A stretch of 22,531 nt of DNA from a virus (IMGVR_UViG_2778261509_000018); one strand, 5' to 3'. Counted from the stretch's first letter, positions 1 to 19,435 are shown. Numbers and translations are program-made. The notes: generated from the letters alone by a model not told the origin.

Positions 1-1434
1 ATGTCTGAATTTGAAGTGTTGGCACAGCATCTGCTGAAGGAAGCCGAGGCGGAAGAAAAGCTGCGACAGGAAAATGATAAAAAGCTTATCGAGAAAGTGC
101 TGGAAATCTATGATCAGAAGTATGTAGCTGAATTACTGAGAAAAGTCGGAAAAAATGAGTGGAGCCGTGAAACCATTAACCGCTGGATTAATGGCAAGTG
201 TTTACCAAAATCGTTGACTTCAGTAGAAGAGTCTCTTCTGCGTAAGATGCTACCAGAACCACCTGCAAACCATCCGGAATATGCTTTCCGCTTCATTGAC
301 TTATTTGCTGGAATTGGAGGGATACGGAAAGGTTTTGAGGCCATTGGAGGCCAGTGTGTTTTTACCAGTGAATGGAATAAAGATGCTGTGCGTACATACA
401 AGGCCAACTGGTTTAACGATGAACAGGTGCATAAATTCAATCTCGATATTCGGGAAGTCACGCTGAGTGATAAAACCGATGTATTGGAAACGGATGCTTA
501 TGCATATATTGATGAGCATGTGCCGGATCATGATGTGCTTCTTGCGGGGTTCCCGTGCCAGCCATTTAGCCTTGCTGGTGTTAGTAAGAAAAACTCACTT
601 GGTCGTGCGCATGGTTTTGAATGTGAAGCACAAGGAACACTTTTTTTTGACGTGGCACGTATTATACGAGCAAAAAAACCGGCAATTTTTGTGCTGGAAA
701 ATGTCAAAAATCTGAAGAGCCATGATAAGGGTAAAACTTTCAAAGTCATTATGGAGACCCTTGACGAGCTGGGCTACGAAGTTGCCGATGCTGCAGAAAT
801 GGGAAAAAACGATCCAAAGATTATCGATGGGAAGCATTTTTTGCCTCAGCATCGTGAACGCATTGTTCTGGTCGGATTTAGACGAGATCTGAATATTCAC
901 AAGGGGTTTACCTTGCGTGATATCAGTCGTTTTTATCCGGAACACCGCCCATCATTTGGTGAATTGCTGGAGCCTGTAGTCGACAGTAAATATATACTTA
1001 CGCCAAAACTATGGGAGTACCTTTATAACTACGCCAAAAAGCATGCAGCCAAGGGGAATGGTTTTGGCTTTGGGTTGGTCAATCCTGAGAATAAGGAAAG
1101 CATTGCACGCACACTTTCTGCCAGATATCACAAAGACGGATCAGAAATTCTTATTGATCGTGGTTGGGATATGGCAACGGGAGAGGCTGACTTTATGAAT
1201 GAGAGTAACCAGGCTCGTCGACCACGCAGGCTGACTCCCCGAGAGTGCGCACGCCTTATGGGGTTTGAAAAACCTGGAGGGAAACCATTCCGTATTCCGG
1301 TTTCAGATACTCAGTCATATCGGCAGTTCGGTAACTCCGTTGTGGTGCCAGTATTTGAAGCCGTTGCCAGACTTCTGGAACCCTATATCCTCAAAGCTGT
1401 TTCTGCTGATGCTGGTAAGACTGGGCAGCCTTGA
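1..1434 (+). CDS. ecoRIIM: DNA (cytosine-5)-methyltransferase, M.EcoRII/Dcm family (CCWGG-type), 477 aa
   Basis: Full-length ORF with canonical C5-MTase motifs: [10 protein letters not shown] (motif I, AdoMet binding), GFPCQPFS (motif IV, catalytic Cys), ENV (motif VI), [10 protein letters not shown] (motif X). Close overall resemblance to Dcm/M.EcoRII as I recall them, including the N-terminal extension. ATG is at window position 1, so the promoter lies outside the window. Confidence 0.93.
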
Positions 1435-1440
1435 GAACAC

Positions 1441-1463
1441 CTCCCGGCCTTTTAAGCCGGGAG
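1441..1463. terminator. Inverted repeat CTCCCGGC-N7-GCCGGGAG between the convergent M and R stop codons; candidate bidirectional terminator (no clear U-tract)
   Basis: Perfect 8-bp arms seen directly; located between stop at 1432-1434 (+) and stop at 1469-1471 (-). Confidence 0.35.
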
Positions 1464-1468
1464 TCAGC

Positions 1469-2677
1469 CTATGATAGTTCAGCGTAAAGTTCTATCAGCT
1501 CAGTAATGAATGCTCCGAGCGTTATTAATTCTTCTCTAACTGCTTCTGGGTATTTTTTATGTAAAGTTGATGGTACAACGAGTCTGACACCCGCATCTTT
1601 CATTTCTCGGTATTGTGCTGAAGAAACACCTTCTTGCAGCGTAAATAAATGTACCTGATGGATTTTATCTGCTTCATTCAGTATCTGACGCCAGCGATCT
1701 TTGCAGGTGGTCTTTACTGCCAGCATACGTAAGTTTTCTACAGGAAATTCAACGTCATGATATGCCTCTGCTGAAGGAAACAGGAAATCTGGTTTTTTAT
1801 TACCTTCAGTAACTGCCTGAGTGGAGAAATGTCGTAGTCCGTGCTCGATAAAAAGCTTCTCTAGGTGAAGTTCAAGTGATTTACCTGCCCTTGATTTACG
1901 TCGATTACTGACAGAGTTGGCTAATGCAATAAACTCATCTACAGAATTGAATCCTTTCTTAATAATATCAATAACATGTAATTCCTCGACGAGTAGAAAA
2001 ATATCATACTCGACACGCCGACGGTCAATCAGTTGCTCATCTGGATCCTTGGAGTTTTTAGCATAATGGCCAGCAGCATATTGAATAATTTCGTTTCCAG
2101 AAGGAAAACGCTTCTTCCAGTCTTCAGGAATAACATATTTATGATTTACTGGAGTTTGCTGAAGAGGCAATCCGCCCAAAATTTGTCCGGCAGGGCCGGA
2201 AATTAGGGTTCCAGGTATGATTTCGCCAATAGCAGACTCGATGATATCCTCTTCATCGGGATTGACGCAGACCCATATATCTACCTCGGAACAGTCAGTG
2301 TTCTGTTCGTTTAACCTGAAAGCAAGAATTGTGAGGGCTCCTGTATTTTCAGAGTTCTGTAATGGACTTCCTCTCCCCCAGCGCGTAATTCTTTTTTCGT
2401 TTCGGGTCTTACCAAAATAACGGTTGTTGTAATAAATTGCGCGTGCTTGGGTATCAGGGCAATCATGGGATGATACATGCGCAGTAAGGAAGACTGAAGG
2501 GTTCAGTTCGCGAGTATGATTGATAGAAGGAAAAAGCTTTTCAACGATATTTGAGGGGATATAAAGTCCGACCTGATGGCCACCTGTTGCGCCTGTGTCG
2601 TTTGCAGAAAGGCGTTTGATGTAGATAAAGTAATTCCCGCTTGCGATATCAAGCAGCCAGTTATGAAAAACCGACAT
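1469..2677 (-). CDS. ecoRIIR: Type IIE restriction endonuclease, EcoRII family (CCWGG-specific; N-terminal effector DNA-binding domain plus C-terminal catalytic domain)
   Basis: Translation (MSVFHNWLL...KRLSANDTGATGGHQVGLYIP...) closely matches R.EcoRII as I recall it. Convergent with the cognate MTase. Start placed at the second ATG (2675-2677), which has an AAGGG Shine-Dalgarno 6 nt upstream; the first in-frame ATG at 2681-2683 would give 404 aa. Confidence 0.88.
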   Translation of the reverse strand: MSVFHNWLLDIASGNYFIYIKRLSANDTGATGGHQVGLYIPSNIVEKLFPSINHTRELNPSVFLTAHVSSHDCPDTQARAIYYNNRYFGKTRNEKRITRWGRGSPLQNSENTGALTILAFRLNEQNTDCSEVDIWVCVNPDEEDIIESAIGEIIPGTLISGPAGQILGGLPLQQTPVNHKYVIPEDWKKRFPSGNEIIQYAAGHYAKNSKDPDEQLIDRRRVEYDIFLLVEELHVIDIIKKGFNSVDEFIALANSVSNRRKSRAGKSLELHLEKLFIEHGLRHFSTQAVTEGNKKPDFLFPSAEAYHDVEFPVENLRMLAVKTTCKDRWRQILNEADKIHQVHLFTLQEGVSSAQYREMKDAGVRLVVPSTLHKKYPEAVREELITLGAFITELIELYAELS

Positions 2678-2760
2678 ATACATCCCTTTGTTAACATACA
2701 GTCAGGGTTAACATTTTTCCATAGTTATAGATAAGCGGCTAGGAACTTAAGGGAAAAACA

Positions 2761-2784
2761 AAAAGCCCACATAAGCGGGCTTTT
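2761..2784. terminator. Bidirectional rho-independent terminator-like hairpin (AAAAGCCC-loop-GGGCTTTT)
   Basis: GC stem flanked by an A-tract on one side and a T-tract on the other; lies between the orphan gene and the endonuclease promoter region. Confidence 0.45.
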
Positions 2785-3434
2785 GTGTCACTCGAGAGCC
2801 GCGGCTCCTTTGCGTATCTTTTTTGTCTCCTCACCGTCTGGTCGGTGTCCTGCTGAGACTGCTAATTTCCTGTTTTTGTTAGTACTGTCCTAGAACTGTC
2901 CAATCATGATTGGTGGGCTGGCGGAGTTGAAACCGCAGACACGTCGTATGTAAGAACGTGCTGCGGCTGGCTGGCCAGCTTCTGATAGTGCGAATATTGA
3001 ATGATTTCTATCTGTTATAGATTTTACCGTATTTCGGCATGAATGAAACTGAATATCCTCCCACCGATTCTCCATGACTTTACGCCACTGTCTCTAGGGC
3101 TGCTATGTGCCAAGAGCGGACGTTGGTATGCAAGAGCCCTCCAAAAGTTGATGGTTGGTTTGCAGGGGGGCTTAAAGAAACTGCACTTATCAAGTTGAAG
3201 TTCTGTATTCAGCGAAATCGTAGCACTCTGACGATAAGTAACTCCGGTACCCCGCTCTTCGATGAAGAACCAGAGTAATCCCCCCGAAAAAATAGCGCAT
3301 CAAAATTGGATCTTCAGCGGTAGCTTATCGGCTATCGGAAGTACAGGTGTGGATTCGTGGTGAATTGCTTTGATAATAAACGATTAATACGGAAAAACGC
3401 ATTAATCATTTATTAGCTTTTAGTAAACCACAAT

Positions 3435-4784
3435 TTATTCCGTTTTACATATCATAGTAGTCGATTGGAGAATATAGTTTCTGGGAATGTACTCTTCAAA
3501 GTGTTCGTCCTTTTTAAATACATGAACTACATTTGGGAATAATTGATAGTCAACAGGGTGTATAGCGTTTGGATTATGGTACATGTATATGGCTGTACAC
3601 CATGGTTCTTGATAGTTAGGGTCACTTACATCGGCTGAAAATAGATGTGGGTCTGCATCCTGATCAGTTTTAACACCACTGACGTACACTTTGAATCCAC
3701 TCGCCTCTACACCTGCAAGAATTCCCATCCGGTTAAACTTAGGTATGGTTGCTTGAGTAGTGAGTAAAACGGCAGAAACATAATTATTTTGTTCTGAGCC
3801 AAAAAAGTTCGACTTGATACTTCTATTTTCATCTGTATGTCTTTCAATAGAAATGCCTGACTCAATATCAATCCCGTACAAATAGCTATGCAAGGCTTCG
3901 CTTGAGAAGGCCATGGACATTCTTTTTGAATAATCCTGCATTGCTATGACAAATGGTTTGTTCTTTGTATGGTTGAGTTCCCAGTAATGAACTTTCTCTG
4001 GCTCAGGGCAATGCCGGACTTTTTTTAATAAACTTCTTGCAAACTTAAAAGGCATGACATTTAGAACATGTCTTCTTAATTCATCCATCTGCTCATCGTT
4101 AATGACTTTTCTTTCAAGAGGGGCTTCTGCTTCAGCAATGCTTACAGCCTCTACAGCAATTTCCACTCCAAATTTAGATAGCAGAAAATCTGGTTGATTG
4201 TATTCTCTATTCATTTCAAAGTCGAGTTCATAAAATACAGCGTTCAAATATAATTCAAATAACCTTGAATTAAATGCATCACTTTGAAAATCTCTTATAA
4301 ATATTCCATCAGGATCTTTGAACCAGTATGCAAGTTCCTCAAGAACAATATATGCAGGGAAATGAAGAGGGTCTTCGATGAGCATTTTTATATAAATATT
4401 CCTTTTTTTCTCTGGGACTTTACTCAAGAATAATGAAAAAGGTTTGGTTGATTCATCGCCTTGCATGAATGTGCCGTTTTGGTGCTGCGCCAGCATCTTT
4501 GGTATGTCATCGTTTAAATTATTAAGCAAGACATCCATTGAGTCAAATGAAGCCAAGACGTTTATTGCTCTGAATTTTTTATCTAAATCCCGACCCAATA
4601 CTATTGCGTTAAAATCTTTATCAATATTACATATAATTATTGTGGATAACAATGTTATCCCATTCCCCTCATATTTAAACCAGCGTATCTCCTCAGAGAA
4701 TGTCTTAAGGTAAGGTGAGCGACCGTAAAAATAAATATCAAATTGTTCTTTGCTGATCTCACTGAAGTGTAATCCTGCGTTCAT
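3435..4784 (-). CDS. Hypothetical protein, 449 aa; AT-rich orphan gene, no motif recognised
   Basis: Long uninterrupted ORF in a region visibly more AT-rich than its flanks; separated from neighbours by about 650 bp and 500 bp of non-coding DNA; no recognisable catalytic motif by eye. Confidence 0.6.
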   Translation of the reverse strand: MNAGLHFSEISKEQFDIYFYGRSPYLKTFSEEIRWFKYEGNGITLLSTIIICNIDKDFNAIVLGRDLDKKFRAINVLASFDSMDVLLNNLNDDIPKMLAQHQNGTFMQGDESTKPFSLFLSKVPEKKRNIYIKMLIEDPLHFPAYIVLEELAYWFKDPDGIFIRDFQSDAFNSRLFELYLNAVFYELDFEMNREYNQPDFLLSKFGVEIAVEAVSIAEAEAPLERKVINDEQMDELRRHVLNVMPFKFARSLLKKVRHCPEPEKVHYWELNHTKNKPFVIAMQDYSKRMSMAFSSEALHSYLYGIDIESGISIERHTDENRSIKSNFFGSEQNNYVSAVLLTTQATIPKFNRMGILAGVEASGFKVYVSGVKTDQDADPHLFSADVSDPNYQEPWCTAIYMYHNPNAIHPVDYQLFPNVVHVFKKDEHFEEYIPRNYILQSTTMICKTE

Positions 4785-4906
4785 ACCAATTCCTTTTCAA
4801 TGAATAATTGGCCTTTAGGAGTGATTCCCTTTGTCTTTAATTCAGTTCTAACTAGTTCTTTAATCCAATAGCCTAAGCTCATCATGCAGTTGGATCATAA
4901 GACAAC

Positions 4907-4935
4907 GCCCTATAGTGCTCGTGATACTATAGGGC
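4907..4935. promoter_or_regulatory. Perfect 10-bp inverted repeat GCCCTATAGT-N9-ACTATAGGGC about 120 bp upstream of the orphan gene start
   Basis: Seen directly; position relative to the start at 4784 (- strand) suggests an operator or leader structure. Confidence 0.3.
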
Positions 4936-5309
4936 ATCTGACCACACTGTTAACTGGAGTAACGACTATGGCAGGAATACAGCATAACTAAACTCACCCC
5001 AAACTTACATAGCGCTTTCTGGCCGTGAGCATAACAAGGTCCGCTCCTCGCTCATAACAGACATTCACTACAGTTATGGTAGAAGGTATGCATGCTGGGT
5101 GGGGAAAGTATGAAGGAAAAGAAGACTGCTGCGCCGTTTGTCGTCACATTTATCTTCATTGGCTATGCAAGTCGTAATACAAGGTGGGACAAAACTGAGA
5201 CACATAAGGCCTCGCAATGACTTGCAAGGCTTTACATGTTTTGATGTGGTGGGACGTGTGAGCGCAGTGTTGATGGGGTAATGCTTTGAATTAGAAGCGG
5301 ATTCTTATA

Positions 5310-5355
5310 ATTCGTAATGCGAAGGTCGTAGGTTCGACTCCTATTATCGGCACCA
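5310..5355 (+). other. 3' fragment (about 46 nt) of tRNA-Thr(CGU) (thrW-type) ending in CCA; attachment-site core, not an intact tRNA
   Basis: ATTCGTAATGCGAAGGTCGTAGGTTCGACTCCTATTATCGGCACCA matches the anticodon loop to 3' end of tRNA-Thr(CGU) as I recall it. The upstream sequence lacks the GCCGATA acceptor 5' strand and D-arm, so no cloverleaf can form. Confidence 0.7.
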
Positions 5356-5372
5356 TTCAAACATCTCCCCAA

Positions 5373-5466
5373 GTCTACTAAAGTCTTTCAAAACCCCTTA
5401 TAATCCGCGTATTAAAGCCCCGTTCGTCTTTTGACGTCTACTAAAGTCCCTCAAAATCTACGGTCA
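5373..5466 (+). repeat. Two 21-bp direct repeats (GTCTACTAAAGTCYYTCAAAA) between the att core and int; candidate integrase arm-type binding sites
   Basis: Copies at 5373-5393 and 5446-5466, 19 of 21 identical, same orientation. Confidence 0.35.
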
Positions 5467-5520
5467 GATGGGGGTACTTATGGGGGTATTTGCTGTTCGG
5501 TTTAGTGGAGGTACCCCCAA

Positions 5521-6735
5521 GTGAAACTCAATGCCCGTCAAATAGACACAGCCAAGCCAAAAGAGAAGGCTTACAAGCTGGCCGATGGTGGCGGTTTGTA
5601 TCTCTTGGTAAAACCTAATGGAGGTAAATACTGGCGACTTAAATATCGTGTAGCTGGTAAAGAGAAGCTATTGGCACTAGGTGTTTATCCTGAGGTTACT
5701 CTAGCCGATGCTCGGGCAAAACGTGAAGATGCGAAAAGAGGTATCGCTGGTGGTATCGATCCGATGGAAGCGAAACGAGAGGAAAAGATTGCCCGGGAAA
5801 CGCAGTTAAACAACACCTTCAAAGATATTGCCCTTGAGTGGCACAGCAGCAAATTAAAAAAATGGTCTGCTGGTTATGCTTCAGACATCCTCGAAGCCTT
5901 CAACAAAGATGTGTTCCCTTACATTGGCAAAAAACCCATCGCCGAAATCAAACCACTTGAACTTCTGAATGTGCTGCGTCGCATCGAGGGGCGCGGTGCT
6001 ACAGAAAAAGCTAAAAAAGTGAGGCAACGGTGCGGGGAAGTTTTCCGCTATGCAATAGTCACTGGTCGCGCAGAGTATAACCCTGCACCAGACCTTACTA
6101 GCGCGATGCAAGGCCATGAATCTAATCATTACCCTTTCCTTACAGCCAAAGAATTACCTGATTTTTTCAAGGCATTGTCCAGTTACTCAGGAAGCGCATT
6201 GGTTGTTATGGCGGCTCGTCTACTGATTATCACCGGCTTGCGGACTGGCGAACTACGTGGCGCATTATGGGATGAAATTGATTTCAACAAGGCTATCTGG
6301 GAGATACCCGCTTCACGTATGAAAATGCGGCGGCCTCATATTGTGCCATTGTCTGAGCAGGCTCTTTCGCTTATTGGGAAGATTAGAGAAATAACAGGCA
6401 ATTACCCTCTTATGTTTCCCGGGCGCAATGATCCAAGGAAAACAATGAGCGAGGCCAGCATAAACCAAGTGTTTAAGCGCATTGGCTACGCTGGACGTGT
6501 AACTGGTCATGGGTTCCGGCACACTATGAGTACGATTTTGCATGAGCAGGGCTATAACACCGCGTGGATAGAAACGCAGCTCGCTCACGTTGATAAGAAC
6601 TCAATTCGTGGCACATACAACCATGCGCAATATCTGGATGGAAGGCGGGAGATGCTTCAATGGTATGCCGACTATATGGATTCTCTCGAGCATGACGGAA
6701 ATGTGGTGCATATGGTGTTTGAAAAACACGCATGA
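5521..6735 (+). CDS. Site-specific tyrosine integrase, P4 (IntA/IntS-like) family
   Basis: N-terminus AKPKEKAYKLADGGGLYLLVKPNGGKYWRLKYR is typical of P4-type integrases; catalytic-region motifs LRTGELR, HGFRHT and a C-terminal Tyr (RGTYNHAQY); GTG start with GGAGG 10 nt upstream; sits immediately 3' of the tRNA fragment. Confidence 0.93.
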   Translation: MKLNARQIDTAKPKEKAYKLADGGGLYLLVKPNGGKYWRLKYRVAGKEKLLALGVYPEVTLADARAKREDAKRGIAGGIDPMEAKREEKIARETQLNNTFKDIALEWHSSKLKKWSAGYASDILEAFNKDVFPYIGKKPIAEIKPLELLNVLRRIEGRGATEKAKKVRQRCGEVFRYAIVTGRAEYNPAPDLTSAMQGHESNHYPFLTAKELPDFFKALSSYSGSALVVMAARLLIITGLRTGELRGALWDEIDFNKAIWEIPASRMKMRRPHIVPLSEQALSLIGKIREITGNYPLMFPGRNDPRKTMSEASINQVFKRIGYAGRVTGHGFRHTMSTILHEQGYNTAWIETQLAHVDKNSIRGTYNHAQYLDGRREMLQWYADYMDSLEHDGNVVHMVFEKHA

Positions 6736-6879
6736 AACAACTGGACAAGTATACAGAGGTTTACTAAAGTATAGGGGAGTAGATTGATAAAAACTCACAG
6801 AGGATTGCTATTTAACAGTTAGCCCTGGAGAAGGGCAATCGCTCTTTTACAAACGAAGGTGTATTGAGCCTTCTACGTC

Positions 6880-6941
6880 GCTGACAAAGCGGAATGTTCT
6901 TTAACAGGCTTTGGCGCTGACAAAGCGCAATTGTTCTTTAA
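6880..6941 (+). repeat. Two imperfect about 25-bp direct repeats (GCTGACAAAGCG-N-TTCTTTAA) in the int-alpA intergenic region
   Basis: Seen directly at 6880-6904 and 6916-6941; a 15-bp-stem hairpin (7043-7077) lies nearby. Confidence 0.3.
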
Positions 6942-7163
6942 AACTACTGGATGTCACGCCTAATAGCGTGATCCTGCCGAAATGCAGGGTAGCTCTACCC
7001 TTGTGGAGCAAACAAACCAAAACAATCTGACTATCTTTTATAAAAGACCGCAATATGTTTTTCATATTGTGGTCTTTGGCGTATTCGACATTTGACGCAA
7101 ATAAAACTCTCGCCATTCGTTGCAGGAGGGGGTTATTGCGTCATTAGTACAGGATATTAATAA

Positions 7164-7367
7164 ATGGCTAATTACAATTCATTAATTCGTCTCTCTGAAG
7201 TTCAAAGGCGAACTGGTTATAGCAAAGCATGGATTTATCGTCTTATTAGTCAGGGGAGGTTCCCTAAACAGGTAAAAATTGGAAGTCGGGCAATTGCTTT
7301 TGTTGAGTCTGAAATAGATGAATGGATTGAGAAGTGTATATTAGAATCTAGAGACGAGGTGGCCTGA
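7164..7367 (+). CDS. alpA: AlpA-family phage transcriptional regulator / excisionase-like HTH protein
   Basis: 67-aa protein with LSEVQRRTGYSKAWIYRLISQGRFPKQVKIGSRAIAF, the classic AlpA/MerR-like HTH; position right after a P4-type integrase. Confidence 0.8.
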   Translation: MANYNSLIRLSEVQRRTGYSKAWIYRLISQGRFPKQVKIGSRAIAFVESEIDEWIEKCILESRDEVA

Positions 7368-7798
7368 TGGAAAAGAAAAACCGCCCATTACAGGCGGCTA
7401 ATTCAGATATTCGTGTATCTGATGTTACGCCCCTTACAAAATCCCCTCAAGCACCAAAGCGCACACCGAAAAAGCATCGTGCCAGAGTCTATATGCTGCG
7501 TACTGGTATAGAGGGATGGACAGAAAATGACATTCTTCGCTACTGCCGTCTGTCTTCTGGTCGTAACTATGCAACAGAGTTAGAACGCCAGCTTGGAATC
7601 ACTCTGGAGCGTATCGACGAAAAGAATCCTGATGGTATCGGAACACACCTTCGCTACCGTTTCTCCTGCCGTGGTGATGTTCTGAAAGTGATCACTCATA
7701 TTAACCATCTTGCGAACATAAATGATCACAACGGACTTTCTCAGCAGGAAATTGCCGACATTCTGAAACTCTACCCGGACGCGTTTAACGCCGCCTAA
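7367..7798 (+). CDS. Hypothetical protein (143 aa), translationally coupled to alpA
   Basis: Start overlaps the alpA stop (TGATG); basic N-terminus; no motif recognised. Confidence 0.55.
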   Translation: MEKKNRPLQAANSDIRVSDVTPLTKSPQAPKRTPKKHRARVYMLRTGIEGWTENDILRYCRLSSGRNYATELERQLGITLERIDEKNPDGIGTHLRYRFSCRGDVLKVITHINHLANINDHNGLSQQEIADILKLYPDAFNAA

Positions 7799-7810
7799 CG
7801 GAGACTGAAA

Positions 7811-8644
7811 ATGAACATCGAAAAAAGCAGATTAATTTCTGAGGCCGCCCCTCATCTGAACGCCTCTCTGGGCACAATTAACGGTAATGAATTTGCCGCA
7901 ATTGTCCCGGTTATTCCTGGTCATATCGGTGGGCGTGAAACCAATATTGTTAGCGCAAAAGCGTTACACAAAGCGTTGGGCGTGGGAAAAGACTTCTCTA
8001 CATGGATCACTGATCGCATCTCTGAATATGACTTCACCATTGGGCACGATTACTCAGTCCATAAAACTATTTCCCCAAATTTGGGGAAAATCCCGAATGG
8101 CGCGGCTTACAGCAAGATTAAGCAGTCTGGCAGACCCGGCAAAGACTATCTGTTAAGTGTCGGAATGGCGAAAGAACTGGCAATGATCGAACGCAATGAT
8201 CAGGGGCGCGCTATCCGCCGTTATTTCATCCAGTGCGAGGAAGAATTACAGCGTAGCGTGCCTGAAATCGCCGCCCGCTATCGTCGCCAGCTAAAAGCCC
8301 GTCTCAGTGCCGCAAACAACTTTAAGCCAATGTGCGATGCGCTGAATATGGCCCGTGCCGAGATGGGTAAAACGACGCAGCAACACCACTACACAAACGA
8401 GAGCAATATGATTTCTCGTATCGTTCTTGGTGGGCTAACTGCTAAACAGTGGGCGCGGATAAATGGCTATTCTGGCGAACCTCGCGACCATATGAACGCA
8501 GAACAACTTGAGCACCTCTCATATCTCGAAAGCACCAATATCACGTTAATTGATATGGGCATGGAATATGAGCAGCGCAAAGGAGAACTCACCCGACTGT
8601 CGCAACGCTGGCTCGCCAAGCGTCTGGAGGCGGTCAATGTTTAA
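7811..8644 (+). CDS. Phage antirepressor-like protein (AntA/KilAC-like domain)
   Basis: Segment FSTWITDRISEYDF...GKDYLLSVGMAKELAMIERNDQGRAIRRYFIQCEE resembles antirepressor/KilAC domains as I recall them; assignment by recollection only. Confidence 0.55.
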   Translation: MNIEKSRLISEAAPHLNASLGTINGNEFAAIVPVIPGHIGGRETNIVSAKALHKALGVGKDFSTWITDRISEYDFTIGHDYSVHKTISPNLGKIPNGAAYSKIKQSGRPGKDYLLSVGMAKELAMIERNDQGRAIRRYFIQCEEELQRSVPEIAARYRRQLKARLSAANNFKPMCDALNMARAEMGKTTQQHHYTNESNMISRIVLGGLTAKQWARINGYSGEPRDHMNAEQLEHLSYLESTNITLIDMGMEYEQRKGELTRLSQRWLAKRLEAVNV

Positions 8645-8819
8645 GCCGACAGGAACACCACAACCTCAAAAACGCTACAAAGATGCCCACGGAGCACTCG
8701 TTACTGTCGAAAGCGTGTCTCACAACCGAGTGACGTTTTATCGCGACGGGTATCAATCGCCATGCGTACAACCGCTGGCGCGTTTCATGAAGGAGTTCGC
8801 GGAGGTTAACAAATGCTAA
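8637..8819 (+). CDS. Small hypothetical protein (60 aa)
   Basis: ATG overlaps the upstream stop (AATGTTTAA); the longer upstream extension in the ORF track is in a different frame from the preceding gene and is unlikely to be used. Confidence 0.35.
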   Translation: MFKPTGTPQPQKRYKDAHGALVTVESVSHNRVTFYRDGYQSPCVQPLARFMKEFAEVNKC

Positions 8820-9841
8820 CCGTCCAGAAGAAGACATTTTCACTGGCTGGTATGTCGCCAAAATCCAGCAATATGACAGCAAAGTCAGGCATTAATACAG
8901 CAGATACAAGCAAAGTTTATCATTTGCTGGTGGTAGGAGCGGATGCCTTAACTATGTCAGAAATTACGGTCGATGGTGTTAGCGTTGAGAAGGTCAGCGG
9001 CTGCGCCAGAGAATTTCTGGTCGTAGATCACCTGTTCTGCTCGTGTAGTGACTCCACAAAAACATTCGTCCACGTGCGTGACGTTAACGAAATGAGCGCG
9101 ATGTATTGTGCATCTGGTGCTTCCAATAGTGAGTTTTCGGAGTCCATAAAAAAGAGCTTGCCGTTATGCGGCAACACGGTTTATGGTTATAAGGCACCTC
9201 ATAAAACGGGTGCCGGGATTAGGACCCCGCAGGCAATCGAGGCGATACATGACGCGCCAGCGTCTTTTTTTGTATCGGCGCACACGCACACCTTATCAAT
9301 GGTGGGCTGTATGGGGCTGACTTCGGTCAGGCTGGTTTCCTTGATTGCCAGTAGTCCTAACCCTGTACAGTCCACCGCCAGCGAGCTTAGGACCTCCGGC
9401 GGTGGCTATAAACCATCAATCAAGGAGGCTGCCACATGCTGGCTACTACCCCTACCCAAAAACCGCAATTTATCTGGATTATCGCCGCAGTTCGCCGCGA
9501 TTGCCCGACAATTACCGCCAAAATTCATCATATTGCTGCCGAGTCTGAACGCGATGCTCGCCGTTCTCTGGTGCGCGATCACGTCTGCTTTTTTGCTGGT
9601 CGTATCCGCATGGAGGTGGCACATGATTAAAACCTACGATGTGCATATGGATCCCCTCGAACGCACAAGCCAGATCATCACACTGACAGAAGTGATTAAC
9701 GACATTCTGGTGAGCAACTCTCCCTCACGAGACGAAAGGCTGAAGGCGTTACTCGCGATATTGGATCTCGCCGTTCGTGACGTTCATTTCCTGCTGGAAG
9801 GTGGACAAATGCCAGTAAAAACGGGGGCAACCAATGAATAA
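8813..9841 (+). CDS. Uncertain long ORF (342 aa, Cys/Ser-rich); possibly two genes read through (8813 to about 9430, and 9623-9841, 72 aa)
   Basis: Open frame with ATG overlapping the previous stop (ATGCTAA); completely overlaps the Icd-like ORF in another frame; internal ATG at 9623 overlaps the Icd-like stop (ATGATTAA). Confidence 0.25.
9436..9630 (+). CDS. Host cell division inhibitor Icd-like small protein (64 aa)
   Basis: Strong Shine-Dalgarno AAGGAGG at 9422-9428, 7 nt before the ATG; sequence ([17 protein letters not shown]...) resembles Icd-like proteins of P4-like elements as I recall them. Confidence 0.4.
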   Translation: MLATTPTQKPQFIWIIAAVRRDCPTITAKIHHIAAESERDARRSLVRDHVCFFAGRIRMEVAHD

Positions 9842-10028
9842 CTCAATTAATACCCCTCGCCTTACGTCCGCACTTCAATTAATCGAGCAAGCAGCGGCTG
9901 TCCTGGTTGCTGTCAGTCTTTCGGCTGAAGAAATGGACGCTGCTGATGTCGTGGATGCGATTAAAGCGTGCTCATCTTTGGTTAACGATGCCCGTGCCGA
10001 GCTGGTAATTCTTGGGGGTGAAAAATGA
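9834..10028 (+). CDS. Small hypothetical protein (64 aa)
   Basis: Start overlaps the upstream stop (ATGAATAA); part of the coupled gene chain. Confidence 0.4.
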   Translation: MNNSINTPRLTSALQLIEQAAAVLVAVSLSAEEMDAADVVDAIKACSSLVNDARAELVILGGEK

Positions 10029-10288
10029 ATATCAACTTAATTTATCGTCATCCGTGTGAGCTGGAAATTGAATCATTGCTGGGGCGCGAAGAGCCATATC
10101 CAGACACATTCACTCCCGCAGATTGCGCGACTGAACGGCTTACCAGAGCGCGCACAGGTCTGGTTCATGTGATGAATGAGATTGTTCCCTCGGTGGGAGG
10201 GGAACAGGCGACAGTAATCAATAGCTGGCTACAAAAAGTTACCTCCCTGATAGATATCGGTTTAATCGATGTGGAGAGTGCGAAATGA
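10025..10288 (+). CDS. Small hypothetical protein (87 aa)
   Basis: ATGA start/stop overlap with the upstream ORF. Confidence 0.4.
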   Translation: MNINLIYRHPCELEIESLLGREEPYPDTFTPADCATERLTRARTGLVHVMNEIVPSVGGEQATVINSWLQKVTSLIDIGLIDVESAK

Positions 10289-10506
10289 CCAACATCCAGC
10301 TCATTGAAGCGCAATGTCGCATCGAACAGGTTCAGACTGTTTTAGGGTTCTGGCTTGAAGGGGCCAGCCCCAGCAACAGAGACAAGTTAATGATTGGCGC
10401 GGTTATGTCACTGCTCAATGGCGTACCAGAAGCTATTCAGGAAGCGGACGAATTGTTGGGCAAATATGAGTTACAGAATCATTCAGGCGAGGCGAAACAT
10501 GAATAA
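10285..10506 (+). CDS. Small hypothetical protein (73 aa)
   Basis: ATGA start/stop overlap with the upstream ORF. Confidence 0.4.
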   Translation: MTNIQLIEAQCRIEQVQTVLGFWLEGASPSNRDKLMIGAVMSLLNGVPEAIQEADELLGKYELQNHSGEAKHE

Positions 10507-11101
10507 TTTCTTAACTTTCCATGCAGAAGCAACGCCTGACGGCGTAAACATCATGTACCGCAGCAACGATGGCATGACAGAACGCGTTGAGGCCGTCTCA
10601 TATATTGATGCCGTAAATCGTCTGGATGCCGGGGATTATGACGATAAACCAGATGAAGGCATGTTTATACATCTCGCTATTGCCAGTGGCGGCAACCAGG
10701 GATATTTCGATTACACATCACAGCATCACGTGATTATGTGGCGCTGGCTGATAGCAACAGCATTCATCAATGAAATGAGAAAGGAAAACGGCACCGTCAG
10801 CATTATTGATGACAGTGGCAATCATTCCGTGGTTTCTGTTTATTCCAATGGCATCGTCGCCATGCCGCTGTATCCAGTAGCAGAGCGCCTCGCTATGGCA
10901 AACAACATTGAGGGCGCAATGATCGAGAAATATGGTGTTGATGTCGGAACAAAGAATGCCATCATTTTTTACAGCAACATGTTCGATGTCGAACAGGGAA
11001 CACTCACTTCGTTTGGGCGAGAAGTGCTTGCCGATCTTCACAACAGCTTTATTGCCGAACTAAACGAAAACGGCATCCCAGAAGCACCAGTGACGCACTA
11101 A
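10499..11101 (+). CDS. Hypothetical protein (200 aa)
   Basis: Start chosen at the ATG overlapping the upstream stop (ATGAATAA) rather than the track start at 10394, which overlaps the previous gene in another frame. Confidence 0.5.
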   Translation: MNNFLTFHAEATPDGVNIMYRSNDGMTERVEAVSYIDAVNRLDAGDYDDKPDEGMFIHLAIASGGNQGYFDYTSQHHVIMWRWLIATAFINEMRKENGTVSIIDDSGNHSVVSVYSNGIVAMPLYPVAERLAMANNIEGAMIEKYGVDVGTKNAIIFYSNMFDVEQGTLTSFGREVLADLHNSFIAELNENGIPEAPVTH

Positions 11102-11113
11102 ACGGGGGCCAGA

Positions 11114-13465
11114 ATGCGAAACATTGATCTTATCCGTCAGGTTATCAGTGCGTCTGAAAACAACTGGCCTCATGTGCTGGGCTGCCTGAACATAAATGTC
11201 CCTGACTCTCCGCGCCGTCATGCTCCCTGCCCTGCATGTGGGGGCAAAGATCGATTCCGGTTCGATGACAACGGGCGCGGTAGCTTCATCTGTAATCAGT
11301 GCGGCGCTGGTGATGGGCTGGATTTAATTAAACGCGTAAATAACTGCGACACAACAGAGGCGGCGCTTCTTGCCGCTGATGTTCTGGGTATTGATTACCG
11401 GACAACGGAAACACCAGAAGCCACCAGCCAGAAACGGGAACAACTGGAAACCGAGCGCCAGCGACGCGAACAGGAGCGCCTGAAAAGGGCAGAGAAGGAC
11501 GAACAACAAAGACGGGATACGTTTTCCCGTCAGTTTGATGACATGCGCAGAAAGGCTGTAAACGGCAAATCTGATTATCTGGTTGCGAAAGGGGTAGGTG
11601 ATTTTACATTCCCCGTGTTGCCCGATGGATCTCTGTTGCTGGCGCTGGTGGATAAATCCGGCGCAGTCACAGCAGCACAGACTATTACCCCACATGGTGA
11701 AAAAAGACTCCTGACAGGTTCGGCAAAGCGGGGGGCATATCACGCCATAAACGCACAGAAACGACCTCACAGCATCATAATTGCTGAGGGGGTGGCTACC
11801 GCCCTGTCGTGCCATTTAATTCGCCCTGACGCAATGACAGTGGCAGCAATCGACGCTGGCAACCTGTTGCCAGTAGCGGAAGTCATGCGCAGAACATATC
11901 CGCAGGCACAAATAATCATTGCCGCAGATAACGATCACCAGCAAGGAGACTCAGAAAGTGGAGGGATCAACACGGGGAAAGATGCCGCAGAGAGGGCCGC
12001 TATTTCCGTAGCTGGCAGGGTGTCTCTGCCACCGACTGACTATAAAGCCGACTGGAACGACTATCACCAACAACACGGGCTGGCGGCAGCCACAGCAGCA
12101 TTTAAAGATTCGATGTACCAGCCACGGGGGAAAGGGGCGCAGGTGAAAAATCACAAACAGTCAGTCGGGGCGCTGAATGAGATCAGTTCTGGCGAGGTGT
12201 TAAGCGATGATGAAATTGCTGTCCTCGAAGAAATCAACCGGACGTTTACGCATGTCACCATCGGCGGGAAACACAAGGTGGTGTCGCTAAAGCCTTCTCA
12301 AACCGGCGGTGTATCGCACGTTTTCGAGGATTTATCACAATTTCAGCATTATTTTCATCATAAACCGAGAGTCGCCAGAAAGCTGGCGGGATCGGCGTGG
12401 CTGTCATGGAGTGGGAAGAACTACAAGCCAGGAGGCGTAGGATTTTATCCAGTACCAGACAAATGCCCTGACGATGTTTTTAATCTGTATGAGGGGCTGG
12501 CACTGGAACCAATTGAAGGAGATTGCACGGTATACCTTAATCACCTGTTGCAGGTTGTCTGTGCCGGTAATGAAGAGGCATGCCAATATCTTATCCAGTG
12601 GATGGCGCACATTATCCAAAAGCCTGATGAAAAACCGTCCGTGGCAATCGTGATGAAATCTGTCCCGGGCACAGGGAAAGGCACAACGGTTAAACCGCTG
12701 CTGCAAATACTGGGGCAGTACGCCGCCCACATTAACGGGGCGGGACATATTTCAGGGCGCTTCAATTCAATACTTGCTAACAAGCTACTGGTATTTGCTG
12801 ACGAAGTGACGATCCACAAGCCGTCTGAAGCTGACAGACTTAAAGCGATTATTAGCGAACCGACGTTTAACCTTGAGCGCAAGGGAATTGATGCTGAACC
12901 AATGCCGAATTTTGCCCGGTTGATATTTGCCAGTAACAGCACACAGGTATTACAGGCAGGGATAAGAGAGCGTCGCTATCTCGTGCTTGAGCCATCTCCT
13001 GAAAAAGCACAGAGCCGGGAGTATTTTGATCGGCTGTACAGTTGGCTTAATGATGGCGGTGCCGCAAAGTTGCTTTGGCATCTTAAAGGGGTGGATCTCT
13101 CAGGTTTTGACCCTCAACGAGCGCCACAGACCGATGCCTTACGTGAAGAAATCTTGCTGGGGCTGTCTGGCGTTGAATTGTTTCTTTATGGCGAGCTAAT
13201 CAATGAACCTCCGTTTAATGGCGAAGTCCGTTTGTTTGCAAAGGATATGGTTAGTCGGTTTGTAGCGTGGTCGCTTGAGCGTGGGGAAAAGCTTAAAGAA
13301 CCAGCTGCCAGATCACTACTGGGTAAATCACTTGCACAAATGGGGCTGGTGAAGCATGGAAGACCAGACCGAGGGAATGGCGTGTTCTACGAACTACCAG
13401 AGGTCGGAGTTCTACAGGCTGCGTTTGCCCGTCTGATCGGTATGGGGGGTTATGATGTTTTTTAA
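11114..13465 (+). CDS. P4 alpha-type replication protein: zinc-binding primase (Toprim) fused to a D5-like helicase domain
   Basis: Zn-ribbon CPACGG...CNQCG near the N-terminus, Toprim-like IIIAEGVATALS and DNDHQ, Walker A VPGTGKGT and Walker B-like LLVFADE in the C-terminal half; 783 aa; downstream of int/alpA as in P4-like elements. Confidence 0.9.
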   Translation: MRNIDLIRQVISASENNWPHVLGCLNINVPDSPRRHAPCPACGGKDRFRFDDNGRGSFICNQCGAGDGLDLIKRVNNCDTTEAALLAADVLGIDYRTTETPEATSQKREQLETERQRREQERLKRAEKDEQQRRDTFSRQFDDMRRKAVNGKSDYLVAKGVGDFTFPVLPDGSLLLALVDKSGAVTAAQTITPHGEKRLLTGSAKRGAYHAINAQKRPHSIIIAEGVATALSCHLIRPDAMTVAAIDAGNLLPVAEVMRRTYPQAQIIIAADNDHQQGDSESGGINTGKDAAERAAISVAGRVSLPPTDYKADWNDYHQQHGLAAATAAFKDSMYQPRGKGAQVKNHKQSVGALNEISSGEVLSDDEIAVLEEINRTFTHVTIGGKHKVVSLKPSQTGGVSHVFEDLSQFQHYFHHKPRVARKLAGSAWLSWSGKNYKPGGVGFYPVPDKCPDDVFNLYEGLALEPIEGDCTVYLNHLLQVVCAGNEEACQYLIQWMAHIIQKPDEKPSVAIVMKSVPGTGKGTTVKPLLQILGQYAAHINGAGHISGRFNSILANKLLVFADEVTIHKPSEADRLKAIISEPTFNLERKGIDAEPMPNFARLIFASNSTQVLQAGIRERRYLVLEPSPEKAQSREYFDRLYSWLNDGGAAKLLWHLKGVDLSGFDPQRAPQTDALREEILLGLSGVELFLYGELINEPPFNGEVRLFAKDMVSRFVAWSLERGEKLKEPAARSLLGKSLAQMGLVKHGRPDRGNGVFYELPEVGVLQAAFARLIGMGGYDVF

Positions 13466-13494
13466 TATAGTCTTTTTACAAGAAGATCGTTTTT

Positions 13495-13598
13495 ACCTGT
13501 ACCACCTATACCACTTTGCTAATTCAGTATTAAAAACAATGTGTTATAGTGGTACAGGTCAATATCTTACCTATACCAGACCTGTACCACCTATACCA
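13495..13598. repeat. Iteron cluster 1: repeated CCTRTACCA 9-mers (within ACCTGTACCACCTATACCA units) in both orientations; candidate replication origin
   Basis: Direct units at 13495-13513 and 13580-13598, a partial unit at 13568-13578, and an inverted TGGTACAGGT at 13550-13559; immediately 3' of the primase-helicase gene. Confidence 0.5.
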
Positions 13599-13641
13599 TT
13601 AACAAACGCATTTCTTCTGGCTGGCTGAGAGGGAACAGCCA

Positions 13642-13872
13642 ATGATGAGCACACCATTTTACAAAGTGCGCCAGTTAGCTTCTTCCTCTGGCTGGCAGCT
13701 ACGGTTTGAGGGGCGTTCAGACTGGCTACCCATTGCGGCATGGGCGAATGTTGAAATGTGTATTGACGGCGATACCGTTGAAATCATTATTCCCTGCGTG
13801 GCAAGTCGGGACGGCTGTATAGAGCCAACAGATATGGCAGCAGAAATCAGAGAGGTAAAACATGAACAATAA
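13642..13872 (+). CDS. Small hypothetical protein (76 aa)
   Basis: ORF between the two iteron clusters; weak GAGGG Shine-Dalgarno; overlaps the start of the next ORF. Confidence 0.4.
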   Translation: MMSTPFYKVRQLASSSGWQLRFEGRSDWLPIAAWANVEMCIDGDTVEIIIPCVASRDGCIEPTDMAAEIREVKHEQ

Positions 13873-14599
13873 CTATTGCATACCGCAGGGAATGACCAGA
13901 ACGGAGCGCGAAGAATTAAAAAGTTTCGCTACACAGTGCGGGAATGCTGGCGACATCCAAAGTCTGGAACGCACTTTAATTATGATTGCGCACTGGATGC
14001 GTCAGGGGCAAAGGGTTTCATTTACTGAATATGCCAGCCAGTGGACAGAGGCACAGCGCGAACGGAGCGACGGTAATCACTCAACACCCGAAATGGCGAA
14101 GCAATGGCCTTTCAGTGGTAAACGCTGTATCAGTCCCGGTGGTTCAGATTATTACCCTGCTGGTGTGGGAGATGAGCCATGTTGTGACGAGACTGAAATC
14201 CGCCACGCAGTGACAGTAATTACCGCTGAATACCCACAATTTAACCTTGACGGACTGGCGCTCCACAACCGGAATGCGGACTGGGAAAACCCGCTTGATA
14301 ACCCGTCATTTATCGTATCGGCGAAAAGCTGCCTGAGATGGATCAGAGACAACGGGATGAGTAATGCCCAGATTGAGAGCTTCCCGCAGGATAACCCCAC
14401 ATCTGACACGTTGAAGCATGAAGTGGAGCGATATAACCAGATAAACCACCAGCACAGTGATCACCCGCACTATATCCCCAACGGAGCATTTATTGCGGCG
14501 ATGGTGGCAAGCGGCTACAAGGTTAAGCCAGCGGGAAGAATGAACGCATTTTTCAATATTTCAAAAAAAGGATTATGTGCTGCTATGGGTAAAAATTAA
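13862..14599 (+). CDS. Hypothetical protein (245 aa)
   Basis: Uninterrupted ORF with start overlapping the previous gene; no motif recognised. Confidence 0.55.
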   Translation: MNNNYCIPQGMTRTEREELKSFATQCGNAGDIQSLERTLIMIAHWMRQGQRVSFTEYASQWTEAQRERSDGNHSTPEMAKQWPFSGKRCISPGGSDYYPAGVGDEPCCDETEIRHAVTVITAEYPQFNLDGLALHNRNADWENPLDNPSFIVSAKSCLRWIRDNGMSNAQIESFPQDNPTSDTLKHEVERYNQINHQHSDHPHYIPNGAFIAAMVASGYKVKPAGRMNAFFNISKKGLCAAMGKN

Positions 14600-14605
14600 A
14601 TAAAT

Positions 14606-14709
14606 GGTACAGGTCTGTACAGGTGGGGAGAGGTCATTTTTACCCACCTGTACCACCTGCAGGCCGCGCTACACAAGGGTTTGTGACATGGTGGTACAGG
14701 TGGTACAGC
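14606..14709. repeat. Iteron cluster 2: TGGTACAGG / CCTGTACCA copies in both orientations
   Basis: TGGTACAGG at 14606-14614, CTGTACAGG at 14617-14625, CCTGTACCA at 14648-14656, tandem TGGTACAGG-TGGTACAG at 14693-14709; same 9-mer family as cluster 1, about 1.05 kb away. Confidence 0.5.
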
Positions 14710-15073
14710 AAAAACAGCGATTTTCTTTATAAGGTATGTTTTGCTCATCTGGCAGACGGAGGTATTCGCTGCGGTTTGGCACGTAGCCCAGAACAGCAAA
14801 GAGTTTTACGAGACTTTTGTAAAATCCAGTGTACAAGGGCGTGACGTTTTTGAAGGAGAGACCTACGAAATTTTCGTAGTTCAAAAAATAGCCTCTGAGA
14901 TGTTGTTATGCCTGTTCAGCAAACCATCCGCATAGCTGATCGCGAATCAAATTACCAATGGAGCCAGAAGCAAGGGCAGAACTGGAAAGCGCCTGCCGTG
15001 AAGAGTAATGCGACATCATAAATATAGTTTTTAGAGTCCATAAAAAACCTGTCAAAACCTGACATACAGAACG

Positions 15074-15107
15074 ATGCCACCAGCTACTGAGCGGTGGCAT
15101 TTTTTTG
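15074..15107 (+). terminator. Strong rho-independent terminator (ATGCCACC-N11-GGTGGCAT followed by T7)
   Basis: Perfect 8-bp GC-rich stem plus a run of seven T; ends an about 400-bp stretch with no convincing ORF. Confidence 0.6.
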
Positions 15108-15140
15108 TGCTATTTGTTTCATATTTTGCAATCACAATGA

Positions 15141-15176
15141 TGAATGTTGCGTTTTGTGAAACTATAATGACTGTTG
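15141..15176 (+). promoter_or_regulatory. Candidate promoter for the 15202-18951 operon (-10 TATAAT at 15164-15169)
   Basis: Consensus -10 hexamer about 35 nt upstream of the first ORF start; the -35 element is weak. Confidence 0.3.
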
Positions 15177-15201
15177 TTTTATACAGTTCTAAGGGGACGT
15201 T

Positions 15202-15375
15202 ATGGCTATTTCAGTAAAGCCAGTATTGATAAGTGAGAAGCAAATGGAAGCGATAAAGAAAATTCAGGAGGAGCAGCGTAAAAAATCAGAGGTAGGAGTT
15301 GCGCCAACGATCCACGAAATTGCTCGGGGATTAATGGATAAGGCGCTGGCTTACACTTTAACTGGACGTGGGTAA
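15202..15375 (+). CDS. Small hypothetical protein (57 aa), first gene of the cargo operon
   Basis: Not in the ORF track (below its size cutoff); AAGGGGA Shine-Dalgarno 5 nt upstream of the ATG; its stop is 4 nt before the next start; possible small DNA-binding or regulatory protein. Confidence 0.4.
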   Translation: MAISVKPVLISEKQMEAIKKIQEEQRKKSEVGVAPTIHEIARGLMDKALAYTLTGRG

Positions 15376-15379
15376 ATTT

Positions 15380-16846
15380 ATGGCTACTTGGCAACAAGGA
15401 ATCAACTCAGGCGGTTTTCTGGCTGGCATCGGTACGCAAAACGAGAATGCGCCAAAGGCAAGCGACATTAACGCAACGCTTGGTCTGATCCGCGAAAACA
15501 ATGAACTGGCTCGCTCAGGTGCAAATAACGTTGCTCTGACAGGTCTTCGTGGTCTGGCTGGAGTTGCTGATATTTATAAGCAGCAGCAACAGCAGGAGCG
15601 TAAAGCGGCATTCCAGAAAGGTTATGCAGATGCTTATGCGTCCGGTGACAGGGAGCAGATGCGTAATCTTATTACAGCATTCCCAGAAGAGTTTGAGGAA
15701 GTCCGTAAAGGGATGAGTTATGTCGATGATGCTCAAAGGGATGATTATGGCAATCTGGCGCTCAAAGCACAGGTAGCCTCATCGCTTGGTCCGGGCGCAT
15801 TTGGCAGGTTCATGATGGATAATGAGCAGGAGATGCGTCGTTTAGGTATCCCTCCAGAAACTATTGCTGAAATGCAGGTTAATGACCCGCAGGGCTTCCA
15901 GCATTTCGCAGGTAATCTGGCGCTGTTTTCTCTCGGTCATGAGAAGTATTTCGATATCAAAGATCAAATGGAAGGTCGGGATATTGAGCGTGGCAAGTTG
16001 GCAGAGACAATCCGCAGCAATCAGGCTGGCGAAGCACTTCAGGCGAGAGGGCAGGATATTAGCCGAGCAAATGCGTTAACGTCAGCATATGCACCAACAG
16101 CAGCAATGCAGAATTACAATCAGTACGCGCAAATGTTAAAGGCGGATCCAGAGGGGGCGGCGGCATTTGCGGCAGCGGCTGGAATTAATACAAACGCCAA
16201 AAAATTAATGAGTGTTAGAGAAAACGATGATGGCACTGTCACAAAATACTACACAGACGGAAGTGAAGAGCAGGGAAAACTAAACCAGCCAATATCTGGA
16301 GATGGGTTTCGTCCAATAGCTTTGCCAACAGCCCAAAAGATCATGGAAAAGTCGCCAGAAGGGGCTAAAAAAGCTGCTGGATTTGCATACAGGGTTAGGG
16401 ATGCTCTTGATTCAATAGATACACTGAAAGACCAGCTTAGCCCACAGCGAGTGGCGATCATTAATAATGCTTTGGGTAATGGGACGCTGGCTAACTTAAC
16501 GCTCAGCCCAGCAGAGCAGCAATACGTTGTTAATGCTAATGACGCAATAATGGCAATACTCCGTCAGGAAACAGGGGCATCTATCCTACCAGCTGAAATG
16601 TCCAAATATTATCAAATGTATTTCCCTCAGCCTGGTGATTCCACAAAAACCATTGATACCAAGCGCCGGAAGATGGAAAACCAGTTCAATTCGCTGAAAG
16701 CTGCTTCTGGTCGAACTTATGATGCTTTGCGGGTTATTTCAGCAGTTGACAGAGGAACTGCTTCTTCGTCGCAGACATTGCCGCAATCTGAGCAGGTATC
16801 ACAGCCAGCAGCCAGCAGTAACTTTTCTTCACTATGGGGTGATTAA
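15380..16846 (+). CDS. Hypothetical Ala/Gln-rich protein (488 aa)
   Basis: Long ORF, start taken at the ATG at 15380 (the track's GTG at 15368 is less likely); stop overlaps the next start (TAATG); composition suggests a largely helical protein; no enzymatic motif recognised. Confidence 0.7.
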   Translation: MATWQQGINSGGFLAGIGTQNENAPKASDINATLGLIRENNELARSGANNVALTGLRGLAGVADIYKQQQQQERKAAFQKGYADAYASGDREQMRNLITAFPEEFEEVRKGMSYVDDAQRDDYGNLALKAQVASSLGPGAFGRFMMDNEQEMRRLGIPPETIAEMQVNDPQGFQHFAGNLALFSLGHEKYFDIKDQMEGRDIERGKLAETIRSNQAGEALQARGQDISRANALTSAYAPTAAMQNYNQYAQMLKADPEGAAAFAAAAGINTNAKKLMSVRENDDGTVTKYYTDGSEEQGKLNQPISGDGFRPIALPTAQKIMEKSPEGAKKAAGFAYRVRDALDSIDTLKDQLSPQRVAIINNALGNGTLANLTLSPAEQQYVVNANDAIMAILRQETGASILPAEMSKYYQMYFPQPGDSTKTIDTKRRKMENQFNSLKAASGRTYDALRVISAVDRGTASSSQTLPQSEQVSQPAASSNFSSLWGD

Positions 16847-18951: not shown

Positions 18952-18969
18952 CTGGTTAGCCATGGATGG

Positions 18970-19389: not shown

Positions 19390-19435
19390 AGCTTGGGTCG
19401 GGATTTCAAATCCGCTCCCAGTTGATGGGGCCGTT

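Follow-up and report, generated by a model that had tools for sequence, protein, structure and literature searches.

What is the gene that occupies positions 3435–4784 of a 22,531-nt stretch of viral DNA (IMGVR_UViG_2778261509_000018, hereafter the window), and on what kind of element is it carried? The original prediction described a long reading frame of 449 codons with lower GC than its flanks and about 500–650 bp of non-coding DNA on either side, and took it for an orphan. The ORF is present as described, on the minus strand with an ATG start, and its GC content of 0.362 (GC3 0.336) does lie below that of the surrounding DNA. The AT-rich tract is larger than the gene: GC is 0.382 across 3102–5062, with a minimum of 0.34 in sliding windows, in contrast to 0.44 in 1–3101 and 0.464 in 5063–9000. 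Both flanks are gene-free, as had been claimed, but they are longer than stated, with 751 bp (2684–3434) from the ORF to a restriction enzyme gene and 736 bp (4785–5520) to an integrase gene, or 525 bp if measured to a tRNA fragment at 5310. Neither gap contains an ORF longer than 61 aa, and the RefSeq annotation of strain NT1F31, which is 99.87% identical over 1–5365, places nothing in the corresponding gaps.

The ORF proved not to be an orphan. Its product matched the PADLOC profile for PD-T7-1 (PDLC04073) end to end (518.8 bits, E 2.8e-156; residues 8–447 on profile positions 2–448 of 452), a profile broad enough that homologues of 33% and 51% identity score equal to the window protein, and the PADLOC profile for PD-T7-5 matched in part, over residues 117–427 (E 6e-40). 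On the strength of the full-length match we assign the ORF to PD-T7-1, a single-gene anti-phage defence family. Pfam and NCBIfam scans gave no match to the protein even at E values up to 10, nor did a profile search against all PDB sequences. An exact copy is held in public collections as a "hypothetical protein", within a 90%-identity cluster of 528, and remoter homologues of about 450–500 aa are found across Proteobacteria at 30–86% identity. Among 5426 complete E. coli genomes, 201 carry the gene; all copies are chromosomal and have 95–100% DNA identity to the window copy. It is also present, at 98–99% protein identity, in isolated phages, namely P2-like Yersinia phages, lambdoid mEp460 and Morganella phage IME1369_01.

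PD-T7-1 was one of 21 systems obtained by functional selection on E. coli isolates (Vassallo et al., 2022; PMC9519451). Its source was E. coli ECOR46, protein RCQ85672.1, a single CDS listed at 2183–3533 (PMC9519451); this span of 1351 positions fits the 1350-nt ORF in the window. The ECOR46 clone, consisting of the single gene and 302 bp of native upstream DNA, protects E. coli, lowering the plating of T7 and, more strongly, that of T-even phages, with adsorption unaffected (PMC9519451), and a copy from NILS69 gave K-12 protection against a Teseptimavirus and smaller T7 plaques (PMC12409345). A single-gene defence or abortive-infection determinant had been proposed, and the full-length match to a family that protects E. 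coli agrees with that proposal. The PD-T7-1 literature searched yielded no published mechanism and no biochemical report of nucleic acid cleavage. Because the lengths are equal and the diversity of all E. coli copies is narrow, the window gene appears equivalent to the validated ECOR46 allele. The two are alike in their full-length profile match, 449-aa length, organization as a single gene with its own upstream region, and prophage or defence-island setting, as well as in the same weak PD-(D/E)xK signal on residues 171–219; the window copy, for its part, lies next to an EcoRII-type restriction-modification (R-M) system in a lambdoid prophage, at the end nearest thrW. Nothing demonstrable sets the window protein apart from PD-T7-1, to which it is tied by profile and length and not by direct identity to RCQ85672.1. 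The gene is thus an already known defence system, catalogued since 2022 and detected automatically by PADLOC, and by itself it adds nothing new. PD-T7-5, a 390-aa single-gene system from strain UMB0934 (PMC9519451), has the central nuclease-like and C-terminal domains in common with the window protein but is without its 116-residue N-terminal domain, and because of that absence trigger recognition probably differs between the two.

No motif had been recognized in the protein, but a motif and fold of the PD-(D/E)xK type were found, with the canonical lysine missing. The AlphaFold2 model, built from 65 homologues (pLDDT 92.3, pTM 0.91), has three domains, all encoded on the minus strand: an N-terminal alpha/beta domain (residues 1–116; 4437–4784), a central PD-(D/E)xK-like nuclease core (about residues 117–262; 3999–4436) and a C-terminal beta-rich domain (about residues 263–449; 3438–3998). 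The element order in residues 117–262 (helix, three strands, helix, strand) is that of the restriction-endonuclease fold. In the model E177 (4254–4256) sits on the first helix, P198-D199 (D199 at 4188–4190) opens the second strand and E212 (4149–4151) lies on the third; these residues are invariant in the 65 sequences, down to 30% identity. Position 214, that of the canonical (D/E)xK lysine, is variable and not a lysine, and K255 (4020–4022), an invariant residue on the next helix, is a candidate substitute. An invariant acidic triad with a relocated lysine is typical of active PD-(D/E)xK variants. The same core fold and acidic triad characterize Shedu SduA, Hachiman HamA and Upx, which are single-protein PD-(D/E)xK defence nucleases (HamA and Upx were in the structural match list of the model), and also the minimal nucleases Hjc, VRR-NUC and XisH. 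The model thereby points to a divergent PD-(D/E)xK nuclease fold in the middle domain, from which we infer nuclease action.

A protein with this fold might no longer be catalytic, and might defend by binding or sequestering a phage component or through abortive toxicity without cleavage. The missing canonical lysine would suit such a protein, and so would the weak fold matches: a Foldseek search of the PDB with the model gave no match under E 0.026, and the structural neighbours include a number of inactive or structural subunits, Sen15 and Sen54 among them. It is harder to reconcile with the strict conservation of all three acidic residues and of K255 over the whole homologue set, and we consider loss of catalysis unlikely. 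The candidate residues E177, D199, E212 and K255, together with the confident three-domain model, make direct targets for mutagenesis of the putative nuclease.

Searches with the whole model also gave small protein-binding and immunity-type folds. Aligned residue ranges were not part of that output, and we provisionally place these matches on the N-terminal domain, as a candidate sensor or protein-binding part; being missing from PD-T7-5, this domain is a natural candidate for trigger recognition. The C-terminal domain, which is common to PD-T7-5 (profile coverage runs into it, to residue 427), had no informative structural relative in the structure searches, and its invariant residues are Y267, W268, R352, E393, W395 and H403-N404-P405.

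Upstream of the gene, the perfect 10-bp inverted repeat that had been reported at 4907–4935 is exact. It has the form GCCCTATAGT-N9-ACTATAGGGC, with arms at 4907–4916 and 4926–4935 around a 9-nt spacer, and folds as DNA at -9 kcal/mol (z = -3.64; 0 of 200 shuffles as good). Across nine copies of the cassette described below the arms do not vary, and the loop has three changes in the most diverged copy, a pattern that is suggestive of arm conservation, though not significant at such divergence. The best sigma-70-like promoter match (4926–4953, minus strand; TTAACA, 16 nt, TATAGT; 10 of 12) is a consensus match only, one of 10 such sites in the region, a number not above the shuffled expectation of 7.6. 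Its predicted -10 hexamer falls within the left arm of the palindrome, so that a genuine promoter here would place the right arm alone in the transcript, and the palindrome would then look like a DNA operator and not an RNA hairpin. It is probably an operator-like site overlapping the predicted -10. Given colinearity of the ECOR46 locus, the 302 bp of upstream DNA in the published clone would take in both the palindrome and the promoter match. Downstream, 20 bp past the stop codon, an AT-rich 18-nt inverted repeat (3374–3415; 89% complementary, 6-nt loop) possibly marks the transcript end of the gene; a scan for consensus terminators did not call it. In an Rfam search at a permissive threshold, all matches were to sRNAs, were sub-threshold and lay elsewhere than at the gene ends. 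One of these, to the Salmonella sRNA STnc350 (30.6 bits vs. a gathering score of 60), overlaps a strong terminator-like hairpin of 10 pairs followed by a T run, which sits upstream of the restriction gene start codon (2683), in the spacer towards PD-T7-1; the overlapping features lie at 2733–2793 on the plus strand and 2761–2784 on the minus.

The gene had been placed between an R-M module and an integrase-bounded island, next to an att core. It does have R-M genes to its left and a P4-type integrase to its right, but these neighbours belong to two elements: the gene and the R-M module lie in one lambdoid prophage, and the integrase is part of a separate P4-like element. The EcoRII-type R-M module fills 1–2683, with a methylase at 1–1434 (plus strand) and an endonuclease at 1469–2683 (minus strand), recognized by Pfam as DNA_methylase, EcoRII-N and EcoRII-C and by PADLOC as MTase_II and REase_II. 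The module is complete, the C5-cytosine methylase having an N-terminal DNA_meth_N domain and the endonuclease both of its EcoRII domains. In NT1F31 the order is tail-fibre genes, a GIY-YIG gene, cytosine methylase, EcoRII-type endonuclease, PD-T7-1 gene and then chromosomal yagP'/paoD, which indicates that the R-M module and the PD-T7-1 gene form the accessory arm of a lambdoid prophage, at its far end. The GIY-YIG gene that adjoins the R-M module in that strain would be just beyond the window edge.

Homology to NT1F31 stops at 5365. From 5310 to 22531 the window matches, at 100% identity, an island found in many strains directly after intact thrW, and homology to strains with the P4-like island alone begins at 5310; these limits show that the window spans the junction of two mobile elements stacked at thrW. 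The att core beside the gene corresponds to the 3' end of tRNA-Thr (thrW) over 46 nt (5310–5355, plus strand), identical to the 3' part of thrW in STW0522-31. It was identified by alignment to thrW; ARAGORN called no tRNA gene in the window, since only the 3' part of the tRNA is present. By these alignments 5310–5355 is both the right attachment site of the lambdoid prophage and the left edge of the P4-like element. The P4-type tyrosine integrase (5521–6735, plus strand; Pfam Arm-DNA-bind_3, Phage_int_M, Phage_integrase) is accordingly placed, from its sequence context, in the satellite-like island and not in the element of the defence gene. That island carries the integrase, AntA, Ash and a primase. 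Residues 167–266 of its AntA-domain protein (7811–8644, plus strand) match the candidate defence family PDC-S22 (E 4e-11), and a second defence gene in the window, an AbiD-family abortive-infection gene (20195–21157, plus strand; PADLOC AbiD, E 2.7e-57), also lies inside the island. The stretch 15368–18951 (plus strand) holds unusual cargo for a P4-like element, a gene with a P22 injectosome translocase domain (Inj_translocase, E 6.8e-85), elsewhere annotated as a phage DNA ejection protein, and after it a 701-aa gene without a family match.

Within the prophage arm, the gene is carried on a 1961-bp mobile cassette (3102–5062, minus strand) made up of the gene with 278 bp upstream and 333 bp downstream. 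Cassettes with identical ends and 96–99% identity were found in the P2-like Yersinia phage vB_YpM_46, lambdoid mEp460, Morganella phage IME1369_01 and a Qin-type E. coli prophage; homology among the copies ends at the same two points, and the DNA beyond differs. Conversely, the flanks of the window slot (2928–3120 and 5035–6711) hold other DNA between the same sites in two strains, a 259-aa gene and a DUF4145 gene in EC11 and, in 18AR0366, a 6.6-kb array whose genes include SIR2 and Abi. These comparisons bear on whether the gene is an independent system or a functional partner of the adjacent EcoRII-type R-M, serving as a second nuclease or as a back-up when restriction is blocked. Partnership would account for the shared strand and prophage arm and for a distance of 751 bp to the restriction gene. 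However, where the cassette is found in P2-like, lambdoid and Morganella phages or in Qin-type prophages, no R-M genes accompany it; EC11 and 18AR0366, with the same immediate flanks and other cargo, have no R-M gene annotated in the stretches examined; and the published ECOR46 system is active as a single gene in K-12 (PMC9519451). A partnership with R-M is therefore very improbable.

More diverged homologues are found in varied company. In Serratia, a homologue of 72% identity neighbours a PIN-TPR protein within a P4-type integrase island; an Edwardsiella homologue (61%) lies in a satellite-like element between integrase/AlpA and primase, a Laribacter homologue in the nin-like region of a lambdoid prophage, one Pseudomonas and one Erythrobacter homologue beside gop-beta-cII-type genes, and a Burkholderia homologue among unannotated genes. 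The neighbours of the PD-T7-1 gene differ in more than 12 independent contexts, the conserved unit being the gene and its non-coding flanks only; it is a single gene without a conserved partner. Every recognizable setting in this survey was a prophage, a satellite, an integrase island or a defence island, and none was a housekeeping context. Membership of a housekeeping family and occurrence outside mobile DNA were looked for, and neither was seen in the sampled neighbourhoods.

In Pseudomonas fluorescens HK44 (L068, 4748–7410) a reverse transcriptase gene (RVT_1) lies upstream of a 51%-identical homologue and overlaps it by 4 nt, an arrangement that suggests a two-gene RT-nuclease variant; in PADLOC the reverse transcriptase matches best a generic RT and RT_UG17. 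This overlap is what would favour the most improbable of the alternatives we considered, that the gene is the effector of a retron or DRT-like reverse-transcriptase system whose partner was lost or separated, against which stand the absence of an adjacent reverse transcriptase in the window, in the Escherichia loci, in those of the Yersinia-infecting P2-like and Morganella phages and in the Serratia, Edwardsiella, Burkholderia, Laribacter, other Pseudomonas and Erythrobacter loci, and the activity of the ECOR46 gene alone (PMC9519451).

We consider it highly probable that the locus as a whole is a prophage-borne copy of PD-T7-1 with a candidate PD-(D/E)xK nuclease core, carried on the 1961-bp cassette in a lambdoid prophage at thrW. 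In such a system the N-terminal domain would probably sense or bind something phage-derived and, once triggered, the central core would cut nucleic acid, using E177, D199 and E212 with a lysine supplied by K255 from the following helix. Transcription would probably be driven by a promoter with its -10 hexamer within the conserved 10-bp palindrome, which would serve as the operator. The cassette fills the att-proximal accessory slot of the thrW lambdoid prophage, beside the EcoRII-type R-M, and through PD-T7-1 the prophage would guard its host and itself from competing phages.

While the gene is ordinary, its vehicle, a 2-kb swappable cassette at a prophage end, was unexpected. No inverted repeat in the region is longer than the one formed by the cassette ends (32 nt, 81% complementary; 3100–3131 and 5029–5060). 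The upstream boundary site, U, lies at 5029–5062 (minus strand) with its core GTCTGTTATGAGCGAGGAGCGGAC at 5039–5062, and the downstream site, D, at 3098–3131 (plus strand) with its core GGCTGCTATGTGCCAAGAGCGGAC at 3098–3121. Each consists of a core of about 24 nt followed by a short conserved nTT on the inner, cargo side, about 27 nt in all; the U consensus, from 16 different cassettes, is GTCnGCTnTGAGCGAGGAGCGGAC-nTT, and the D consensus (inverted), from 25 different cassettes, is GTCCGCTnTGTGCCAAGAGCGGAC-aTT. As carried in the window, both sites have degenerate outer arms, and neither on its own folds better than shuffles, so a hairpin role is not supported for the window's sites.

When IMG/VR was scanned with the D site as an exact pattern, 50 loci came back, with at least 25 unrelated cargos; 27 of the 50 have an inverted U-like site 1–4.8 kb away. 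Counting the window (3098–3131 and 5029–5062), U/D sites were seen, in P2-like, lambdoid and further temperate phages, at loci L003, L004–L008, L010–L062 and L076. Defence genes are numerous in the DNA that they bound, which includes SIR2 with HerA, a ThsB-like TIR protein, an LmuB-like ATPase, PDC-S31, and a Lit-like protease with an HNH nuclease, as well as many proteins without a defence-profile match (305, 314, 477, 484, 511, 531 and 675 aa among others). In vB_YpM_46 the PD-T7-1 cassette sits exactly in the P2 G/FI variable slot, where other P2-like phages have other cargo, and the G/FI variable region of P2, vB_EcoM-12474II and R18C is bracketed by the U/D sequences. The cassette occupies a slot of the known variable kind, which comprises P2 Z/fun between G and FI and, in lambdoid phages, the nin region and att-proximal morons. 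In diverged PD-T7-1 homologues (33–72% identity) the sites are absent, which rejects the idea that they are part of the gene family and shows that they belong to phage slots and cassettes.

Familiar kinds of mobile unit did not account for the cassette. A transposon or MITE would explain the terminal inverted repeats, but no target-site duplications or direct repeats flank the four insertions compared and the 1961-bp cassette holds no transposase. An integron gene cassette was likewise rejected: there are sites at both ends, inverted, no IntI-type integrase occurs in the loci examined, and Rfam gave no match of any kind, attC included, at the cassette ends. A 200-aa tyrosine recombinase with little beyond the catalytic domain PF00589 (L008, 5354–5956; also L013, L034, L042 and L047) is carried in a Qin-type cassette array, directly upstream of the PD-T7-1 cassette, and is frameshifted in L003; as a general cassette recombinase it was rejected, being found in one array type only and in no other site-bearing locus. 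A joined-flank search of the phage collection found no empty lambdoid slot. The P2-like Yersinia phage P37 (L009) has an empty G/FI slot without U, D and about 100 bp of flank on each side, so that relative to P37 the entire slot, sites included, looks like an insertion, and for the same reason P37 is no guide to the appearance of an unoccupied site.

These boundary sites are genuine, they recur, and they are easily searched; they are possibly under-described. A tentative reading, which we hold as a possibility and not as the expected outcome, is that U and D are a portable cassette-exchange signal common to unrelated enterobacterial temperate phages, moving PD-T7-1 and at least 25 other cargos. 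The slots so served may be P2 G/FI, the lambdoid nin region, att-proximal arms and Qin of K-12. The sites would then be short shared "adapters" for cargo swaps, most simply through phage-encoded short-homology recombination, or alternatively through a dedicated site-specific enzyme. We know of no earlier description of such a signal, unless the P2 literature of 2004 contains one. Judging by its title, Nilsson et al. (2004, Mol Biol Evol 21:1–13) may have reported the P2 borders already; among the papers searched for the U/D site sequences, none contained them. The P2/P4 hotspot studied by Rousset et al. (2022) adjoins cos, and palindromes or flanking sites are not mentioned there, whereas here the same inverted sites of about 27 nt bound variable DNA in unrelated phage types. 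The U/D boundaries offer a concrete, searchable signature for accessory-gene slots in enterobacterial prophages, and could be a cheap handle for finding new defence genes and for studying how phages trade in them, because many site-bounded cargos match no defence profile.

A further site pair lies in Qin of E. coli K-12 MG1655 (L076, 9982–10996). Shuffled sequence gives no such matches, and the gene between the D-like and the inverted U-like site, which differ from the consensus at 3 and 5 positions, is flxA.
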